From Actinorugispora endophytica (lineage in GTDB: Bacteria; Actinomycetota; Actinomycetes; Streptosporangiales; Streptosporangiaceae): DNA of 64,000 nucleotides. The notes under the pieces are model-generated. The model was not told where the DNA came from. It did no database searches and saw only the letters and a list, made by a program, of their open reading frames with translations. The stretch covers positions 187,696-251,695 of the forward strand of contig NZ_SNYN01000005.1 in the NCBI RefSeq assembly GCF_004363075.1. Direction: 5' to 3'. The first letter of the stretch is position 1. The number at the start of each line of letters is the position of its first letter. The position numbers and the translations under genes were made by a program. Of the stretch, positions 12,304 to 50,069 are shown piece after piece.

Positions 12304-12589
12304 GGGGCTTCGGGAACGCCCACTCCCCGACCCTCGGAATACCCCTTGGGGGTATGGTGGTTCGTGAGGGGGAGAACCGAGGCCGTGGTCGGGGCGGGAG
12401 CCCCTGGGAGGAAGGTGCGGTTGTGGGCGTTCTGGGAAGGCTGGGGGTCTACGGGCTGGTGCTCGTGGCCGGGTTCGGGGGCGCGTTCTGGGTGGGGGCG
12501 CTGGTCGGGCCGGTCGTGCCCGAACCCCCGGCCGCGCACGAGCAGGAGCAGGTCCGGCACGAGGACTCGGGTTCGCACGAGGAGGCGCG

Positions 12590-14842
12590 ATGAGCGGCGG
12601 AACGGCGACGGACCGGGTCGAACTGGCCATCGGCGGCATGACCTGCGCGTCGTGTGCCAACCGGGTCGAACGCAAGCTCAACAAGCTCGACGGCGTGACC
12701 GCGAGCGTCAACTACGCCACCGAGAAGGCGCGGGTCGAGTACGGCGGTGACGTCACCACCGACGACCTGATCGCCCAGGTCGAGAAGGCCGGGTACACCG
12801 CCGCGCTGCCCCGGCCGCCCCGGTCCGAGGACGCCGGGAGCGGCGCCGCCGAGGCGGACCCCGTCGGGGCCCTGCGCACCCGGCTCGTCGTCAGCGCGCT
12901 GCTCTCCGCACCCGTCGTCGCCATGGCGATGGTCCCGGCGCTGCAGTTCACCTACTGGCAGTGGGCGTCGCTGACCCTGGCCGCCCCGGTCCTGGTGTGG
13001 GGCGCGCTGCCGTTCCACGCCGCCGCGTGGAAGAACCTCAGGCTCGGCGAGGCCACCATGGACACCCTCGTGTCCATGGGCACCCTGGCCGCCTTCGCGT
13101 GGTCGCTGTACGCGCTGTTCCTGGGGAGCGCGGGCGTCCCCGGGATGACGCACCCGTTCGAGTTCACCATCGCGCGCGTGGACGGCTCCGCCAACATCTA
13201 CCTGGAGGTCGCCGCCGGGGTCACCACCTTCATCCTGGCCGGGCGCTACTTCGAGGCCCGCTCCAAGCGCAGGGCCGGGGCGGCGCTGCGCGCCCTCATG
13301 GAACTCGGCGCCAAGGAGGTGTCCCGCCTGCGCGACGGCCGCGAGGAGCGCGTCAGCGTGGACGCCCTCGCCGTCGGGGACCGCTTCGTGGTCCGCCCCG
13401 GGGAGAAGATCGCCACCGACGGCGCCGTCACCGAGGGCACGTCCGCCGTCGACATGAGCATGCTCACCGGTGAGTCCGTGCCGGTCGAGGTCGGTCCCGG
13501 AGACACCGTCGCGGGCGCCACCGTCAACGCGGGCGGCCGGATCGTCGTGCGCGCCACCCGCGTGGGCTCCGACACCCGGCTCGCCCAGATGGCCCGCCTG
13601 GTGGAGGAGGCGCAGAGCGGCAAGGCCGAGATCCAGCGCCTCGCCGACCGCGTCTCGGGCGTGTTCGTCCCGGTCGTGATCGTCCTGGCCGTGGCCACGC
13701 TCGGCTTCTGGCTGGGCACGGGCGGCCCGGTGGCGGCCGCGTTCACCGCCGCCGTCGCGGTGCTCATCATCGCCTGCCCGTGCGCCCTGGGCCTGGCCAC
13801 CCCCACCGCGCTGCTGGTGGGGACGGGTCGCGGCGCCCAGCTCGGCATCCTCGTCAAGGGCCCCGAGGTCCTGGAGAGCACCCGCCGCGTCGACACGGTC
13901 GTGCTCGACAAGACCGGCACCGTCACCACCGGCCGCATGACGCTGACCGGTGTGCGCACCGCCGACGGCGAGGACGAGGCCGAGGTGCTGCGCCTGGCGG
14001 GGGCGGTGGAGAACGCCTCCGAGCACCCCGTCGCCCAGGCGGTCGCGCGCGGCGCGGCCGAGCGGACCGGCCGACTCGAACCGGTGTCGGACTTCGCGAG
14101 CACCGAGGGCCTGGGGGTGCACGGGGTGGTGGACGGCCACGCCGTCGTCGTGGGGCGGGCCGCGCTGCTGGCCGAGTGGTCCGTCACCCTGCCCGAGGAG
14201 CTGGAGAGGGCCAAGGCCGACGCCGAGGCCGGGGGCGCCACCGCGGTCGCGGTCGGCTGGGACGGGCGCGCCCGCGCGGTCCTGACCGTCGCCGACGCGG
14301 TCAAGCCGACCAGTGCCCGGGCCGTCGGGCAGCTCCGCTCCCTGGGACTCACCCCGATCCTGCTCACCGGCGACAACGAGGCGGTGGCGCGCTCGGTGGC
14401 CGCGCGGGTCGGCATCGAGCAGGTCATCGCGGAGGTGCTGCCCGCGGACAAGGTGGACGTGGTCAAGCGGCTCCAGGACGAGGGGCGGACCGTCGCGATG
14501 GTCGGCGACGGCGTGAACGACGCCGCGGCCCTGGCGCAGGCCGACCTCGGCCTGGCGATGGGGACCGGCACCGACGCCGCGATCGAGGCGGGCGACCTCA
14601 CCCTGGTCCGCGGCGACCTGCGCGCCGCCGCCGACGCCATCCGGCTGTCCCGCCGCACCCTGGGCATCATCAGGGGCAACCTGTTCTGGGCCTTCGCCTA
14701 CAACGTGGCCGCCCTGCCGCTGGCCGCGGCGGGTCTGCTCAACCCCATGATCGCGGGTGCGGCCATGGCGTTCTCCAGCGTCTTCGTCGTCAGCAACAGC
14801 CTTCGGCTGCGCGGATTCAAGCCGATGGACGACGCCTCCTGA
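12590..14842 (+). CDS. copA: Copper-translocating P1B-type ATPase with an N-terminal HMA domain
   Basis: [15 protein letters not shown] (HMA), CPC in TM6, [21 protein letters not shown]. Confidence 0.9.
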
Positions 14843-44037: not shown

Positions 44038-44931
44038 GTGTCCGCGACGGAGGAGTTCGAGGCGCAGCGGCCGCGGCTGCTCGCGCTGGCGTACCGGCTG
44101 CTGGGATCGGCGAGCGAGGCCGAGGACGCGGTGCAGGACGCCTTCCTGCGCTGGAACGCCGCCGACCGCGCGCTGATCGGGACGCCCGCGGCCTGGCTGG
44201 CCAAGGTGCTCACCAACCTGTGCCTGAACCGGCTCGACTCCGCGCGGGCCCGGCGGGAGCGGTACGTGGGGTCGTGGCTGCCCGAACCGGTCCTCACCGC
44301 CGACCCCGCGCCCGGGCCGCTGGAGACCGCCGAGCTGCGCGAGTCGGTGTCGATGGCGTTCCTGGTGCTGCTGGAGCGGTTGACTCCCCCCGAACGGGCG
44401 GTGTTCGTGCTGCGCGAGGCGTTCGGCTACGGGCACCGCGAGATCGCCGACATCCTCGACGTCACCGAGTCCGCCTCCCAGCAGCTCCACCACCGCGCCC
44501 GCCTGCGCCTGGGCCGGGACCGGCCCCGGTTCGAGGCGTCGGCGCCGGAGCGGCGGCGGGTCGTCGAGCGCTTCCTGGCGGCCGCGGCCGACGGGGACAT
44601 GGCTGGGCTGGAGCGGCTGCTCGCCGCCGACGTCGTGTCCTGGACCGACGGCGGCGGCAAGGTCAGGAGGGCGGCCCGGCGCCCGGTCACGGGGGCCGCC
44701 AAGGTCGCCAGGCTCTTCGTCATCGGTGTGCTGGGAGGACTCCCCGAGGGCGCGGAGATCCGGATCGTCGAGGTCAACGGCCAGCCCGCCCTCGTCGGCC
44801 TTCTCGGTGGCCGCCCGTTCGGCGTCGTACTGCCCGAGGTGGCCGACGGCCTCGTCACGGCGGTCCGCGTCGTCGCCAACCCGGACAAACTGGAGTACCT
44901 GGCGGGGCAGCTCGCCGCCTCCGGGGCCTGA
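44038..44931 (+). CDS. ECF sigma factor of the ECF41 (SigJ-like) type with a SnoaL-like C-terminal extension
   Basis: Sigma-2 and sigma-4 regions plus the ECF41 hallmark YVGSWLPEP, in a roughly 297-aa protein with no adjacent anti-sigma gene. Confidence 0.8.
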   Translation: MSATEEFEAQRPRLLALAYRLLGSASEAEDAVQDAFLRWNAADRALIGTPAAWLAKVLTNLCLNRLDSARARRERYVGSWLPEPVLTADPAPGPLETAELRESVSMAFLVLLERLTPPERAVFVLREAFGYGHREIADILDVTESASQQLHHRARLRLGRDRPRFEASAPERRRVVERFLAAAADGDMAGLERLLAADVVSWTDGGGKVRRAARRPVTGAAKVARLFVIGVLGGLPEGAEIRIVEVNGQPALVGLLGGRPFGVVLPEVADGLVTAVRVVANPDKLEYLAGQLAASGA

Positions 44932-45097
44932 CCCGGTGCTTCCCCCGATGACCCCGGGGATCGCCATGTGGCGCGGGTCACTCCTCTTTCGCTCCCCTGT
45001 TCCGTCATGGATCGGGCCGCCGCCCGGTTCAAGAGGTGACAACGACGCACCGTCGCGGGCGCCGGGGAACCGGGTCGCGGGAGAAGGGCAGGGGAGA

Positions 45098-46285
45098 GTG
45101 TTGGCGCATCGAATCGTGGTCATCGGGGCCGGCTATTCGGGTCTGGCGGCGGCCGGCCGGGCGGCACGCCGGGCCGGAACACCGGGAGCGGAGGTGACGC
45201 TGGTGAACGCCGCGCCGCACTTCGTCGAACGGGTCCGGCTGCACCAGCTCGCCGCCGGGCAGGAGCCGCGCGAGCGGCCGCTGCGGGACGCGCTGCGCGG
45301 ATCGGGGGCGGAGCTGGTCGTGGGCCGGGTCACCGGCCTGGACCCGGGCCGCCGCGAGGTGCTCGTGGACACCGGGGCCGGATCCGACTCCCTGCCCTAC
45401 GACACGCTGGTGTACGCCCTGGGCAGCGCCGCCGGGACCGGCGGGGTCCCGGGCGCGGCCGAGCACGCCCTGTCCGTGTCCACCGGACCCGAGGCGCGCC
45501 GCTCGCACGCGCGGATCGCCGGACTCGCCTCGGGCGGCGGTTCGGTCGCCGTCGTGGGCGGCGGGCTGACCGGCGTCGAGGCGGCCGCCGAACTCGCCGA
45601 GAGCCACCCGGGTCTGCGGGTGCGGCTGCTGACCAGCGGGGAGCCGGGCGCGGCGCTGTCGGAGCGGGGCCGTCGCCACCTGGACGGGGCGCTGGAGCGG
45701 CTGGGCGTCGACGTCCGCGCGAACAGCAGGGTCGTCCGGGTGGACGGGAGCGGGCTCACGCTGGCCGACGGCGCGTCCGTGCCCGCCGACGCGGTGCTGT
45801 GGAGCACCGGTTTCGCGGTCCCCGACATCGCCGAGCGGGCCGGGCTGGCCGTGGACGCGTCCGGCCGCGTCCTGGTGGACGAGCGGCTGCGCGCCGTCTC
45901 CGACCCCGACGTCTACGCGGTGGGCGACGCCGCCCTCGTGACCGGCCCGTCCGGGATCCCGCTGCGGATGGCGTGCGCGACGGGGCTGCCCATGGGGCTG
46001 TACGCCGCCGACGCGATCACCGGCCGCCTGGCCGGGCGGGAACCCGCCCCGTTCCGGTTCCGGTACTACGCCCAGTGCGTGAGCCTGGGCCGCCGCGACG
46101 GCCTGATCCAGTTCGTCGACGCCGACGACACCGCCCGCGAGTCCGTGCTCACCGGCCGCGCCGCGGCCCGGGTCAAGGAGGCGGTCGTCCGGGGCGCCGC
46201 CTGGGCGGCCCGCAACCCCGGCCCCTACACGCCGCGCGCCCGCCGCGCCCGGAGCGCCGCCCGCCCCGAGGCGGTGCTCCGCTGA
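45098..46285 (+). CDS. FAD/NAD(P)-binding oxidoreductase (NDH-2-like pyridine-nucleotide-disulfide oxidoreductase family)
   Basis: Two dinucleotide-binding motifs (IVVIGAGYSGLAAA, VAVVGGGLTGVEAAAEL) and YAVGDAA. Confidence 0.7.
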   Translation: MLAHRIVVIGAGYSGLAAAGRAARRAGTPGAEVTLVNAAPHFVERVRLHQLAAGQEPRERPLRDALRGSGAELVVGRVTGLDPGRREVLVDTGAGSDSLPYDTLVYALGSAAGTGGVPGAAEHALSVSTGPEARRSHARIAGLASGGGSVAVVGGGLTGVEAAAELAESHPGLRVRLLTSGEPGAALSERGRRHLDGALERLGVDVRANSRVVRVDGSGLTLADGASVPADAVLWSTGFAVPDIAERAGLAVDASGRVLVDERLRAVSDPDVYAVGDAALVTGPSGIPLRMACATGLPMGLYAADAITGRLAGREPAPFRFRYYAQCVSLGRRDGLIQFVDADDTARESVLTGRAAARVKEAVVRGAAWAARNPGPYTPRARRARSAARPEAVLR

Positions 46286-46375
46286 CCGTCCGCCGGACCG
46301 CGGCGCGCCGGAGGGACCCCCGGCGCGCCGCGGCCCGTGCGGCGCGCCCGCGGACCACCGCACGTCCGAGCCCCT

Positions 46376-48976
46376 CTACGCGCCCGCCGTCGGAGGGTGT
46401 CTGACCACCTTGTGGATGGTGTCGGCGGCCAGAAGGGCCGGGACCACGCACAGGATGGCGGGCCAGGAGATGGCGGGAGGAGCGGTGCCGCCCAGGTGGC
46501 CGGGCAGCGGGGGGAGGAGAAGGAAGACCGGCAGCGCCAGCAGCCCCGCCCCGAGCGCGGCCGGGAGCAGGGGGTCTCCCGCCCAGGGCACGGTGTCGAA
46601 CGGGTCGGTCTCGCTGCGGCACGCCAGCGCGGTGGCCGCCTGGCCCAGCGCGACCGTGGCGAAGGCGGCTCCCGACGCCGCCGCCAGCAGGGCGGGGCCG
46701 GGGACCGCCCCCCACGTCCAGCCGCCGGTCAGCAGGGCGATGACGAAGGCGAACACGGTGACGGCGGCCGCCAGCGGTCCCAGGACGCCCAGGGACCGCG
46801 CGACCAGTCGCCGGTCGATGAGCGTGGCCCCGGCCGGCGTCCTCCCGCGCATGGCGCGCCGGTCGGGGGGCTCCGCGCCCAGCGCGAGCGCGGTGAGCAG
46901 GCCGGTCCCGAGGTCCAGGGCGAGGATCTGCAGGACGCCCAGCGCGAGCGGGACGGCGCCGCCGGTCAGCGCCCACACGAGGAACGGCGCGAGTTCGGCG
47001 GTGCCCGCCACGAGGTGGTGGGTGAGGAGGCGGCGGACGTTGCCGAGGGCGGCGCGGCCCAACTCGACGGCGGAGACGAGTTCCTGGAGATGGTCGTCGA
47101 GGAGGACGAGGTCGGCCGCCTCCCGGGCGGCGTCCGTACCCGAGGCGCCCAAGGCCACGCCGATGTCCGCCCGGCGCAGCGCGGGCCCGTCGTGGGCGCC
47201 GCCGCAGACCGTCGCCACGACGTGGCCCCGGTGCTGGAGGGCGACGGTGACGCGCAGCCTGTCCTCGGGGGTGGCGCGGGCGACCACGACCCCGTCCCGG
47301 TCCAGCAGCTCGCCGAGGTCCCGCAGGTCGTCGGGTAGCTCCGCGCCGGTCACCACCAGCGGGGGGTCCGCGGCGAGCCCGGCCTCGCGCGCCACGGCGA
47401 GGGCGGTCCCCGGATGGTCGCCGGTCACCAGCGCCGTCCGGACGCCCGCCCGGCGGAAGCGGGCGACGGCGGCGGACGCGCCGGCGCGCGGCGGGTCCGC
47501 CAGAGCGGCCAGCCCCAGCAGGGTGAGGTCCCGTTCGGCGTCGTCGGCGCCGTCGGGAGGGGCCGACGACGGGGCCGCGTCGCGCCGGGCCACGGCCAGC
47601 ACCCGCAGGCCGCGCGCCGTCATCCCGGAGAGCGCGGGCGCCGCGGCGGAGGAGTTCCCGCAGAGCGGCAGCACCGCCTCGGGGGCGCCCGCGACGTGCA
47701 CCGCGCCTCCGGCGACGGCCGACGCCCGGCGCCGGCGCGGGTCGAACGGGTGGCGGCGCGGCACGGGGGGAGCGGAGCGGTCGACCCCCGCTCGGGCGGC
47801 CAGGGCGAGCAGGGCCGCCTCCGTCGGGTCCCCCCTCGGATGCCACCGGTGGTCGGCGGACCGGAACGCCGCGCCGGAGCCGAGCACCGCCGTCTCGGCG
47901 ACCGCCCGGACGGCGGCCAGGGCGGGGGCGCCGCCCGCGAGTCCGCCTCCGGGGGAGTCCACGGCGCCCTCGACCCGCACGGTCCCCGCCGGGGTCCACA
48001 CCTCGATCACCGACATCTCGCCGCGGGTCAGGGGCCCGGTCGTCCCGGTGCAGACGAAGGACACCGAGCCGATCCGCTCCACCGCCTCCGGGCGGCGTAC
48101 CGGCGCGCCGTGCCGGGCCATCCGCCGCGCGGTCCACGTCAGGGACAGCGTCACAGCGGGGAGAAGCCCCTGCGGCACGAGCGCCACGGCCGCGCCGACG
48201 CCGATCAGGAGGCTGTCGGCCGCCGAGGCGCCCAGCGCCGTCGCGACGACGGCGAACAGCACGCCGACCCCCGCCGCGGCCACCGCGACGAGCGCGGACA
48301 GGTCCCGCAGGTCCAGTGTCAGGGGACCGGCCGGGCGGCGGGCCTCGCGGGGCCGGGCGGCGGTCCGGCCGAGCCGGGTCCGCGCGCCCGTGGCGGTCAC
48401 GACGCCCTCGGCCTCCCCCTCGACGACGTACGCCCCCGCGTGCGCGGTCGCGCCGTCGGAGAGGCGCGCGGTGGTGCTCCGGCCGTTCGGCGGCGACTCG
48501 TCGAGGACCAGTGAGTGCGCCGAGGCCAGCCGGACGTCGGCCGCGACGCGGTCGCCCGCCGCGAGGAGCACGACGTCGCCGACCACCAGCTCGGCGGCGT
48601 CGACGAAGGCGCGCCGCCCGTCCCGGACCACGGCGGCCGCGGCGGGCGGCACGCCGCGCGGGTGCCGCGCGGCCCGGGCCGCGCGGTATTCCAGGACGAA
48701 CGCGAGCAGACCGTTCGCGACGACCACCACCGCGATGACCGCCGCGACGCGGGGCAGTCCGCCGACGAGCACCAGCAGCGCGGCGCCCCACAGCAGAAGG
48801 GCGAAGAGGCGGGTGAACTCACCCGCCAGCAGTGTGAACGGGACGGGCCACCGGGGAGGCGGCAACGCGTTCGGGCCGTCCCGGCGCAGCCGTTCGGCGG
48901 CCTCGGCGCCGGTCAGACCCGTGCGCGCGGATTCCGGTGGCCCCGCTCCGGGATCAGCCCCCGCGTCGTGCGCCAT
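46376..48976 (-). CDS. P-type ATPase paralog (type-II-like architecture) with degenerate catalytic motifs; a possible pseudo-enzyme
   Basis: Cation_ATPase_N (GLTGAEAAERLRRDGPNALP), about 10 TM segments and TGD (LVTGDHPGTA) are present. However, the TGES position reads LDESPP, DKTGT reads CTGTTGPLT with no Asp, and GDGVNDAPAL reads GGAHDGPAL. The long frame is continuous. Confidence 0.7.
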   Translation of the reverse strand: MAHDAGADPGAGPPESARTGLTGAEAAERLRRDGPNALPPPRWPVPFTLLAGEFTRLFALLLWGAALLVLVGGLPRVAAVIAVVVVANGLLAFVLEYRAARAARHPRGVPPAAAAVVRDGRRAFVDAAELVVGDVVLLAAGDRVAADVRLASAHSLVLDESPPNGRSTTARLSDGATAHAGAYVVEGEAEGVVTATGARTRLGRTAARPREARRPAGPLTLDLRDLSALVAVAAAGVGVLFAVVATALGASAADSLLIGVGAAVALVPQGLLPAVTLSLTWTARRMARHGAPVRRPEAVERIGSVSFVCTGTTGPLTRGEMSVIEVWTPAGTVRVEGAVDSPGGGLAGGAPALAAVRAVAETAVLGSGAAFRSADHRWHPRGDPTEAALLALAARAGVDRSAPPVPRRHPFDPRRRRASAVAGGAVHVAGAPEAVLPLCGNSSAAAPALSGMTARGLRVLAVARRDAAPSSAPPDGADDAERDLTLLGLAALADPPRAGASAAVARFRRAGVRTALVTGDHPGTALAVAREAGLAADPPLVVTGAELPDDLRDLGELLDRDGVVVARATPEDRLRVTVALQHRGHVVATVCGGAHDGPALRRADIGVALGASGTDAAREAADLVLLDDHLQELVSAVELGRAALGNVRRLLTHHLVAGTAELAPFLVWALTGGAVPLALGVLQILALDLGTGLLTALALGAEPPDRRAMRGRTPAGATLIDRRLVARSLGVLGPLAAAVTVFAFVIALLTGGWTWGAVPGPALLAAASGAAFATVALGQAATALACRSETDPFDTVPWAGDPLLPAALGAGLLALPVFLLLPPLPGHLGGTAPPAISWPAILCVVPALLAADTIHKVVRHPPTAGA

Positions 48977-49228
48977 GGCCGGCGCGGCGCGGACGGGGCG
49001 CGCCGCGGAGTCGGGTGCGGTGTGCGGGAGCAGCCATCTCGGACCTTCCTTCCGGCCGGTGTCCGTCGTGCCGCCGCGTGGCCGAGAAGCGCGGGGCATC
49101 TCCACTACCCGGGATCGTCCGCGGCTACTCGGGGCCGTCCGGCTCCCCTCGGACCTGCCTGTCCCCGCCCGGGGGTGCCGCGCGGCGCCGGCTCTCGATT
49201 TCAGGGGGAATCACACTTGTTTGGATCC

Positions 49229-49261
49229 GTTAACTACTTTATGATCCATAAAGTAGTTAAC
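49229..49261. promoter_or_regulatory. Perfect 13-7-13 palindromic operator in an AT-rich promoter region
   Basis: GTTAACTACTTTAtgatccaTAAAGTAGTTAAC lies about 25 nt upstream of a GAAGGAG RBS and the ATG of the membrane-protein/regulator operon. Confidence 0.6.
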
Positions 49262-49284: not shown

Positions 49285-49713
49285 ATGGCGGAGGAGTCCC
49301 GTCTCTCCCGGGAGGACATCGACAGGGCCGAGCGGCTGCGTGTCCGGACGGCCGCCGCCGGACGGTGGTACAGCGGGTACCTGGTCGTGGTCGGTCTGCT
49401 CTCGGCGGCGCTGGTCGTCGCGGTGGAGGCGTTCTTCCCCGACGGCCCCGCCCGCTTGACGGCCTGTGGGGTGTGGTTCCTGGTGGCGCTCGCGGCCGGC
49501 TGGTGGGCCGAGACCCGCCAGGTGCGCCCGCGAGGGGCGACACGCTTCTTCACGGCCGCCGGAGTGGTATGGCTCGTCGGCTACCTGCTGCTCGTCGGCC
49601 CGCTGGTGCGCTGGCGGTTCGACGACTCGCTCGTGGCGTGGAGCCTGGCGTCCGCGGCGCTGTCGCTGCCCTTCGCCGCGGCCGCGCTGTGGATGCGGGG
49701 GAGGAACCGGTGA
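49285..49713 (+). CDS. Small 4-TM membrane protein (hypothetical)
   Basis: GAAGGAG RBS and 4 hydrophobic helices. The stop overlaps the next gene's GTG as GTGA. Confidence 0.5.
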   Translation: MAEESRLSREDIDRAERLRVRTAAAGRWYSGYLVVVGLLSAALVVAVEAFFPDGPARLTACGVWFLVALAAGWWAETRQVRPRGATRFFTAAGVVWLVGYLLLVGPLVRWRFDDSLVAWSLASAALSLPFAAAALWMRGRNR

Positions 49714-50069
49714 GTCATTTGCGACGTGAGCTGGACCAGGTCATCCACTCGCCGGTGCGGTTCTCGATCGTCGCCGCGCTCACCTCGGTGGAACGGGCCG
49801 AGTTCGGCTACATCCGCGACATGGTCGAGATCAGCGACTCCTCCCTGTCGCAGCACGTCACCACGTTGGAGAAGGCGGGCTACCTGAAGGTCGTCAAAAC
49901 CCAGGCGGGGCGGCGCGCCAAGACCTGGATCGGCCTCACCCCGCAGGGCAGGGCGGCGTTCCGCAACCACGTGGCCGTGCTCAACCGGATCGCCGAGGCC
50001 GCGCCGACGGAGCCCGCCGGTGACGGGGGCGGTACGGACCCCGAGGACGGCGGACGGCCGTCGCGCTGA
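49710..50069 (+). CDS. Winged-helix transcriptional regulator (HTH_34/ArsR-MarR-like)
   Basis: HSPVRFSIVAALTSVERAEFGYIRDMVEISDSSLSQHVTTLEKAGYLKV is a wHTH. The gene is translationally coupled to the upstream membrane protein. Confidence 0.6.
   Translation: MSHLRRELDQVIHSPVRFSIVAALTSVERAEFGYIRDMVEISDSSLSQHVTTLEKAGYLKVVKTQAGRRAKTWIGLTPQGRAAFRNHVAVLNRIAEAAPTEPAGDGGGTDPEDGGRPSR

Follow-up and report, generated by a model that had tools for sequence, protein, structure and literature searches.

This analysis concerns a stretch of 64,000 nucleotides of the Actinorugispora endophytica genome (contig NZ_SNYN01000005.1, positions 187,696 to 251,695; the whole stretch is called the window below), and within it a gene on the minus strand, at 46376..48976, which encodes a P2-type ATPase homologue of 866 residues (MAHDAGAD...PTAGA; ATG at 48976, stop at 46376). 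The encoded protein is identical (100%, protein search) to the annotated A. endophytica "cation-translocating P-type ATPase" P0001. We consider it likely that this protein is a catalytically dead descendant of an actinobacterial P2-type pump, kept at full length and acting as a membrane-anchored nucleotide-binding sensor, regulator or scaffold; this confidence applies to the statement as a whole and rests mainly on its "dead but maintained" part. The specific mechanism, that of a nucleotide-binding, non-hydrolysing sensor, regulator or scaffold, is a tentative proposal. As read from the sequences, the protein is a pseudoenzyme in the usual sense and not a pseudogene, because the residues of the reaction cycle were lost once and purifying selection has acted since.

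The overall P-type architecture described in the initial annotation (N-terminal cation-ATPase domain, about ten transmembrane segments and a TGD motif) was recovered by independent means. Indeed, the five Pfam domains Cation_ATPase_N, E1-E2_ATPase, Cation_ATPase (the nucleotide-binding, or N, domain), Cation_ATPase_C and Hydrolase all pass their cutoffs, and the AlphaFold2 (AF2) model contains 10 transmembrane (TM) helices and a headpiece made of the actuator (A), phosphorylation (P) and N domains (pLDDT 90.8, pTM 0.89). Foldseek aligned this model with P2 pumps in the E1-ATP state (Na,K-ATPase, SPCA1, SERCA2b) with TM-scores of 0.85-0.89, the palytoxin-bound Na,K-ATPase being among the structural matches, and the nearest solved relatives found with HMMER were the Na,K-ATPase alpha subunit (2e-96), the Listeria Ca2+-ATPase LMCA1 and SPCA1. 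By homology and predicted fold, the protein is thus a member of the P-type ATPase superfamily. Assignment within the superfamily is another matter. The generic P-type model TIGR01494 is the sole NCBIfam model passed (190.9 bits for a cutoff of 62.3), while the subfamily models all stay well under their cutoffs, the best being TIGR01106 with 330 vs 946 bits; the PMR1, SERCA and PMCA models reach 260-296 bits against cutoffs of 507-798. The Pfam Hydrolase match is itself weak, at 32.6 bits, and extends over only part of the profile (positions 78-141 of 191).

The catalytic motifs were placed by residue-by-residue alignment to Na,K-ATPase (HMMER) and by a family alignment. The initial annotation had reported that three core motifs were mutated; all three losses are real and were confirmed by this alignment, but their register had to be corrected, since the "LDES" taken for TGES is an upstream VDES box and the strings TGTTG and GGAHDG were each one residue off. 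In the correct register, the TGES-equivalent loop of the A domain reads NGRS (N164-S167; 48476..48487, minus strand), the canonical L-T-G-E-S context having become P-N164-G-R-S167 with the dephosphorylation Glu replaced by Arg. This position holds Arg in five of the six lineages that carry the gene (introduced below), and Met in Thermobifida fusca. The DKTGT-equivalent reads GTTGP (G311-P315; 48032..48046, minus strand), in the context C-T-G311-T-T-G-P315-L-T instead of C-S/T-D-K-T-G-T-L-T, and the phosphorylated Asp is a Gly. In the other lineages its position is occupied by A, P, H, P and H; an acidic residue is found neither at nor beside the phosphorylation site in any of the six, and the adjacent Lys and Thr are also gone. 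The TGDGVND-equivalent, VCGGAHD (V590-D596; 47189..47209, minus strand), has lost the first, Mg-binding Asp and retained the last one; the first Asp is replaced by Gly in five lineages and retained only in T. halotolerans (GDGPDD). By contrast, the TGD motif is retained (residues 518-520; 47417..47425, minus strand), as TGD or TGE throughout the clade, and so is DPPR in the window protein. The canonical motifs of the CopA in the same window were confirmed as well: this open reading frame (ORF; 12368..14842, plus strand) encodes a CopA-type P1B ATPase with TGES, DKTGT, GDGVND and a full Hydrolase match of 104 bits.

Further losses extend beyond the three first noticed, to PEGL, the equivalent of SERCA K684, M5 and M6. 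The K684-equivalent is Lys in 98 of 98 canonical members and Arg in all six dead ones, Arg573 in the window protein (47258..47260, minus strand), where PEDKLRI has become PEDRLRV. In M4, the PEGL-equivalent is PQGL (48164..48175, minus strand), with loss of the cation-ligand Glu, and PLGL in the Thermobifida species. In the M5-M6 cation-site region (46898..47017, minus strand), TDNVAE has become VAGTAE in M5 and DIGTD has become DLGTG in M6. The cation ligands of M4, M5 and M6 are mostly replaced by Gly, Ala, Val or Leu, one or two acidic ligands being left in Thermobifida. On a broader scale, 221 alignment columns have a conservation of 95% or more in 98 active members; an active member departs from them at a median of 2 positions (maximum 14), and each of the five dead sequences compared at 46-65. 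The near-invariant positions that are lost cluster in TGES, PEGL, DKTGT, K684, TGDGVND and M4-M6. In line with this, dead members score 25-47 bits with Pfam Hydrolase and canonical ones 69-84 bits. An Asp nucleophile is indispensable to the chemistry of P-type ATPases and of the haloacid dehalogenase (HAD) fold. From its sequence, the window protein is predicted to be unable to form the aspartyl-phosphate or to dephosphorylate, with a dismantled Mg/phosphate site and most cation ligands lost. At the sequence level, every defining feature of a working P-type ATPase that was tested fails in it, so the label "cation-translocating ATPase" should not be applied to it.

Loss of these motifs is not a peculiarity of one strain. 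Six lineages carry a dead version of the gene: A. endophytica, its closest relative (known from read-archive assemblies), Thermobifida alba, T. cellulosilytica, T. fusca and T. halotolerans. Among the best 120 database matches of the window protein, none of the top four (61-100% identical) has the motifs. DKTGT is present in each of the other 116 (46-58% identical), and nearly all of these have every motif, one lacking an exact GDGxND and three an exact TGES string. About 180 other family members are canonical, two Nocardiopsis strains included. Otherwise canonical members that have DKTGT and lack an exact TGES or GDGxND were observed several times (P0008, P0061, P0114, P0119, P0290, P0304 and P0320). 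The T. fusca (protein AAZ56854.1) and T. halotolerans orthologues were found by anchoring on MetX, the product of a neighbouring gene, and by a second protein search. A contig scan with a four-member alignment relied on poor peptide patterns (ADDAERDL and the N-terminus) and yielded, among the matches listed, canonical or distant loci only, which served as canonical controls. The dead allele of T. fusca is present on hundreds of contigs.

The dead sequences are monophyletic in 100 of 100 neighbour-joining bootstraps and sit on a long stem branch, and the topology obtained for five of them agrees with that of the species, ((T. fusca,(T. alba, T. cellulosilytica)),(closest relative, A. endophytica)). 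The substitutions are shared, as the initial annotation had proposed to check: all six orthologues lack the phosphorylated Asp and the TGES Glu, and they share the Lys-to-Arg change and N319G. Because of this monophyly, of these shared derived substitutions and of one syntenic locus, the sequences indicate a single origin of the loss, before the split between Actinorugispora and Thermobifida. The word "paralog" used in the initial annotation is appropriate only relative to CopA; a canonical family copy from Actinorugispora or Thermobifida was not found among the best 120 matches of either search, and the dead gene is probably, from these searches, the sole representative in its lineage of an otherwise active family.

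Selection on the gene was evaluated as omega (dN/dS), by pairwise Goldman-Yang maximum likelihood (GY94-F3x4, free kappa) with a likelihood ratio test against omega = 1. Omega was 0.20 between T. alba and T. cellulosilytica, 0.18 between A. endophytica and its closest relative, 0.13 and 0.17 for T. halotolerans against T. alba and T. cellulosilytica, respectively, and 0.08-0.10 for T. fusca against T. alba, T. cellulosilytica and T. halotolerans, these last values being near saturation. Between species, p ranged from 1e-37 to 1e-106. Among three T. alba genomes, omega was 0.04-0.11 (p ~1e-7 to 1e-10). For comparison, omega was 0.16 for the concatenated T. alba flanking genes, 0.02-0.15 for flanking genes, 0.04-0.06 for MetX and 0.04-0.06 for pairs of active family members (Ilumatobacteraceae); two distant canonical pairs, L009-L010 and L010-L011, gave no information because of saturation. 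Wrong-frame controls gave 0.78-0.98 or more than 3.7, with the exception of the antisense frame that shares wobble positions (0.27-0.28). The NG86 estimator was discarded, as it is unreliable with a G+C content at third codon positions (GC3) of about 0.95: it gave inflated values, 0.63 for the ATPase gene and 0.2-0.4 for housekeeping flanks. Differences between T. fusca assemblies (2 synonymous, 3 non-synonymous) were too few to inform. Constraint is thus relaxed, about three- to four-fold, yet it clearly still acts, recently and anciently, at every testable time-scale.

The reading frame tells the same story, provided that it is considered across species. In its longest form in the ORF list it counts 909 codons, from a GTG at 49105 to 46376 on the minus strand. 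This frame is open, as initially annotated; its lack of interruptions is nevertheless weak evidence when taken alone, since other frames are also kept open at 80% G+C. The G+C content of the window is 69-80% and peaks at 80% in the 46-48 kb bin, and this composition has as by-products two further ORFs across the ATPase gene (46173..49244), one of 944 aa on the plus strand and one of 872 aa in another frame of the minus strand. The in-frame N-terminal extension of the 909-codon form was rejected: the upstream part has no conserved start codon and is closed at varying points in the other species. Stronger evidence comes from the orthologues. No stop or frameshift was found in any of the six lineages, and in a frame-blind nucleotide alignment of the six genes the gap runs measure 3, 3, 3, 3, 3, 6, 9, 27 and 30 nt, nine out of nine being multiples of three. 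G+C by codon position follows a coding pattern (0.83/0.60/0.95), GC1 and GC2 being lower in active relatives (0.77/0.53). The view that the gene is a preserved pseudo-enzyme rather than a decaying gene is therefore well founded, with six intact syntenic orthologues, omega values of 0.04-0.20 that reject neutrality, and indels that are all in frame. A homologue of the family in an uncultured Actinomycetes metagenome-assembled genome (L019 8001-10552) lacks DKTGT and is interrupted by 17 in-frame stops within the matched span. It appears to be a copy that has truly decayed, but a frameshifted tblastn join could also give this picture.

Constraint is unevenly distributed along the protein, as estimated from two independent species pairs. 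Omega is lowest in the A domain (0.08-0.12), followed by the N-terminal segment (0.15), the P domain (0.12-0.22), the N domain (0.16-0.19) and M5-M10 (~0.20). It rises to 0.21-0.47 in M1-M2 and to 0.38-0.64 in M3-M4, where p against omega = 1 was 0.018 and 0.34, one of the pairs thus not being significant. Overall, the cytoplasmic part shows 0.14-0.16 vs 0.25 for the TM part. A similar pattern was obtained by counting the columns at least 90% conserved in active members and lost in at least four dead lineages. By this count the N domain has lost only 2 of its 46 conserved columns (44 of 46 kept), against 35% for the first P segment and 24% for the second, 36% for M1-M2 and 27% for M3-M4. Also kept are the adenine-stacking Phe, the Glu of GDPxE and the Arg in the RGLRVLA strand. 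In addition, 22 residues that are rare among active members (<10%) do not vary across the six dead lineages, and the P domain holds a cluster of eight, R573, T577, V578, H582 and R602 among them.

The dead gene is preceded by a conserved leader, on the minus strand in the window. A leader box, GTAGCCGCGGACGATCCCGGGTAG / GGATAGCCGCGGACGATCCGGGTAG (49105..49128), has invariant columns in a five-species alignment and is also found in T. halotolerans; it lies upstream of a G+C-rich hairpin (49071..49096) that is present in all six lineages. A strong Shine-Dalgarno-like sequence, GGAAGGAAGG (49044..49053), then precedes a predicted upstream ORF of 27 codons, MAAPAHRTRLRGAPRPRRAGHGARRGG (48954..49037), which is in another frame, spans the ATPase ATG and ends with a TGA 20 nt inside the coding sequence. 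GGAGG, GGGAGG or GGAAGG stands 4-8 nt before the start of this ORF in all six lineages. Its length is 27 codons in four lineages, 30 in the closest relative of A. endophytica and 16 in T. halotolerans, where its TGA and the main ATG share bases (GTGATGG), as is classical for translational coupling. No obvious ribosome-binding site was seen directly before the ATPase ATG, and no comparable upstream ORF or leader was found upstream of six canonical family loci. From a mechanistic point of view, translational coupling of the ATPase gene to the upstream ORF is probable on the strength of these sequence features, and the conservation of the first eight ATPase codons (MAHGxGAD) would be explained by dual coding with this ORF. 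Other scans of the region were less informative. In RNAalifold, the covariation term of the leader was unfavourable, so that support for an RNA structure is weak; a sigma-70 scan of the leader gave no promoter match; and an Rfam scan of 44-51 kb gave nothing relevant, only a chance mir-9 match (E = 0.75). GC3 of 0.95, the conserved ribosome-binding site, the upstream ORF and the leader are indirect signs of expression. Expression data for the T. fusca gene were not found in the open-access literature searched.

In all six lineages, the gene stands between metX-metY and the gene of a secreted cyclophilin; in Marinactinospora and Nocardiopsis algeriensis, no ATPase gene was found beside metXY. 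Other neighbours have been gained and lost while the dead ATPase gene remained. A pair of genes divergent from the latter encodes a 143-aa membrane protein (49285..49713, plus strand) and an HTH_34 regulator (49710..50069, plus strand). It was found only in A. endophytica and T. alba (L021 8958-9724), whereas T. cellulosilytica, T. fusca and T. halotolerans lack it (L001, L024, L027); it therefore cannot be an obligatory companion of the ATPase. Only A. endophytica and its closest relative have genes for an NDH-2-like oxidoreductase, an 88-aa protein and a sigma factor at this place, and a short-chain dehydrogenase occurs at the locus in T. halotolerans only. In the window, the sigma-70 region-2 protein and the 88-aa protein (possibly an anti-sigma factor) are encoded at 44038..45036 (plus strand), between metX and the oxidoreductase gene, which is convergent with the ATPase gene. 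In T. cellulosilytica, the cyclophilin is cut to a 48-aa fragment (L001 9653-9801), a real gene loss beside a retained dead ATPase.

Some further observations were made at these loci. Just upstream of the operon of the 143-aa protein and the HTH_34 regulator, amid ~75% G+C, stands a perfect AT-rich inverted repeat, TTAACTACTTTAT-GGATC-ATAAAGTAGTTAA (window 49230..49260); the arrangement recurs in T. alba, where the sequence has diverged (TCAATCACTTTAG-GAATA-CTAAAGTGATTGA). This repeat is probably the operator of the HTH_34 regulator. In T. fusca, two alleles of metY (L024 8673-10004 vs L028 6786-8117) differ by 37 synonymous and 19 non-synonymous changes beside identical metX and cyclophilin genes, which looks like a recombination or replacement patch. 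In T. alba, a 366-aa protein without a Pfam match (L021 7110-8210 vs L022 7102-8202) shows 1 synonymous and 9 non-synonymous changes (NG86 omega ~3), and it is also the fastest-evolving neighbour between species (65-67% amino-acid identity).

How may such a protein function? In the scenario that we favour, a cation pump would have been disabled in the common ancestor of Thermobifida and Actinorugispora, and the resulting protein would work through its cytoplasmic A/N/P headpiece. A role of the headpiece is suggested by its stronger constraint relative to the membrane domain, by the near-intact N domain and by the new invariant residues of the P domain. The membrane domain, chiefly M1-M4, would have drifted towards a plain hydrophobic anchor, and the N domain would bind nucleotide without hydrolysing it, in a process of sensing, regulation or scaffolding and not of transport. 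Synthesis of the protein would be coupled to translation of the conserved upstream ORF. As a possibility only, we propose from sequence comparison that all these elements hold together, in which case the clade would be the first one of P-type ATPase pseudoenzymes recognised in bacteria, in the form of a nucleotide-binding membrane protein with synthesis coupled to an upstream ORF.

Several points weigh against a maintained, nucleotide-binding pseudoenzyme. The omega of the dead gene is three to four times that of active relatives, and much of the former constraint is gone; moreover, the omega values come from an in-house implementation and neither from codeml nor from HyPhy. The share of Ala, Gly, Arg and Pro is 43-49% in dead proteins vs 41.1 ± 1.5% in active ones (and that of residues with AT-rich codons 4.3-7.2% vs 10.0 ± 1.0%), a composition shift of the kind expected when constraint is relaxed under GC pressure. 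No conserved partner gene was found at the six loci, the flanking pairs each occurring in only some lineages. Only Thermobifida retains the Lys of KGAPE, which has become Ala in A. endophytica and Arg in its closest relative, so ATP binding may not be conserved clade-wide. Finally, the input alignment of the AF2 model consisted mostly of active homologues, and the model indicates compatibility with the fold and is not proof of folding. The higher omega, the shift towards GC-rich codons and the missing partner, together with the nearly neutral M3-M4 and the variation among lineages of the former catalytic Asp position, would also suit a gene without a function of its own, in which residual selection merely purges toxic truncated or misfolded forms of a ten-helix protein, that is, decay in slow motion. 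We regard this explanation as unlikely. Deletion would be the cheapest escape from such toxicity, yet the gene was kept in six lineages out of six while neighbours (the pair of the 143-aa protein and the HTH_34 regulator, the cyclophilin) were lost. The most constrained parts are the soluble A, N and P domains and not the membrane helices, where toxicity of misfolding would be expected. Besides, residues specific to the clade are invariant in the six lineages, the leader and upstream ORF are dedicated and conserved, and omega within T. alba is not above that of the concatenated flanking genes.

A reuse of the membrane domain as a passive channel or carrier, the headpiece being vestigial, would be in line with the constraint that persists in M5-M10, and pumps can be converted to channels, as known for the palytoxin-bound Na,K-ATPase. 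It appears quite improbable, as omega is lower in the headpiece than in the TM part, the helices that line the ion path (M1-M4) are the least constrained ones, and polar or charged pore residues have given way to small hydrophobic ones. Retention of the fold, of TGD/TGE, of DPPR, of the last Asp of GDGVND and of most N-domain residues might in turn evoke a transporter or ATPase that still works, through unconventional chemistry or other residues. This is very improbable given that no lineage has an acidic residue at or near the phosphorylation site, that the adjacent Lys and Thr, the TGES Glu and K684 are lost, as is D703 in five lineages of six, that the M4-M6 cation ligands are largely replaced, and that the established chemistry cannot dispense with the Asp nucleophile. 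As for neutral decay or a sequencing or annotation artefact, it is refuted and its probability is minimal. The long chance frames of 872 and 944 codons call for caution at this G+C content; by contrast, the same substitutions recur in independent genomes and metagenomes of six lineages, with the T. fusca allele on hundreds of contigs and no frameshifts, omega is far below 1 with controls that behave, indels are in frame, GC3 reaches 0.95, and a truly decayed homologue shows 17 stops over the same span. A catalytically dead, maintained membrane protein thus accounts best for the whole of these observations, with the headpiece role described above as its tentative part.

P-type ATPases are among the best-understood membrane enzymes, and pseudoenzymes are common in general. 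A stand-alone bacterial pseudoenzyme derived from a P2-type pump would offer a tractable system for the use of the P-type scaffold without its reaction cycle, T. fusca being cultivable and industrially studied, and the evolutionary record is clean, with one origin, six lineages and constraint resolved per domain. There is also a practical side. In every database, the dead protein goes by the name of PacL or of an ATPase transporting cations, Mg2+ or Ca2+. Judging from its motifs, this transporter annotation is almost certainly wrong, and it will propagate into transporter inventories and metabolic models. A bacterial precedent for a dead P-type ATPase was not found in the open-access literature searched, which does not by itself prove novelty. 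Inactive members are not mentioned in a 2023 review of open questions on P-type ATPases, where the words "inactive", "non-catalytic" and "degenerate" do not occur (PMC10654040).

The closest known system is the active actinobacterial P2-type family (P0005, P0260 of Nocardiopsis sp. MT53, and members from Amycolatopsis, Actinomadura and Nonomuraea), which shares 50-58% identity with the window protein along its entire length and has the same five Pfam domains, 10 helices and A, P and N domains. The window protein differs from it by the lack of the catalytic signatures and cation ligands, by its own leader and upstream ORF, and by a higher omega. No substrate has been characterised for the active family itself, and the window protein lies far below every NCBIfam equivalog cutoff. 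The few degenerate examples found elsewhere come from eukaryotes, and all are either part of a fusion with another enzyme or disputed. In animals, TMEM94 (ERMA) has a ten-helix P-type-like fold without TGES, and one structural study reports finding no evidence of a phosphorylation cycle or of Mg2+ binding (PMC12134183); it has also been argued to be an active Mg2+ ATPase (PMC13322241). TMEM94 is eukaryotic and distant, keeps its Asp (D417) and is disputed as to its activity, whereas the window protein has no such Asp. In alveolates, the P4-ATPase modules of guanylate cyclases (P4GC; Cryptosporidium, haemosporidian GC-beta, gregarines and Tetrahymena) have an altered or missing DKTGT Asp and A-domain Glu, and their authors raise lost ATPase activity and weaker constraint as possibilities (PMC13466520). 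Like the window protein, these modules were retained despite the loss of motifs; unlike it, they are eukaryotic, of P4 type and fused to a cyclase. This fusion gives an obvious reason for the retention of the P4GC modules, whereas the window protein is a stand-alone bacterial protein of P2 type with no fused effector.

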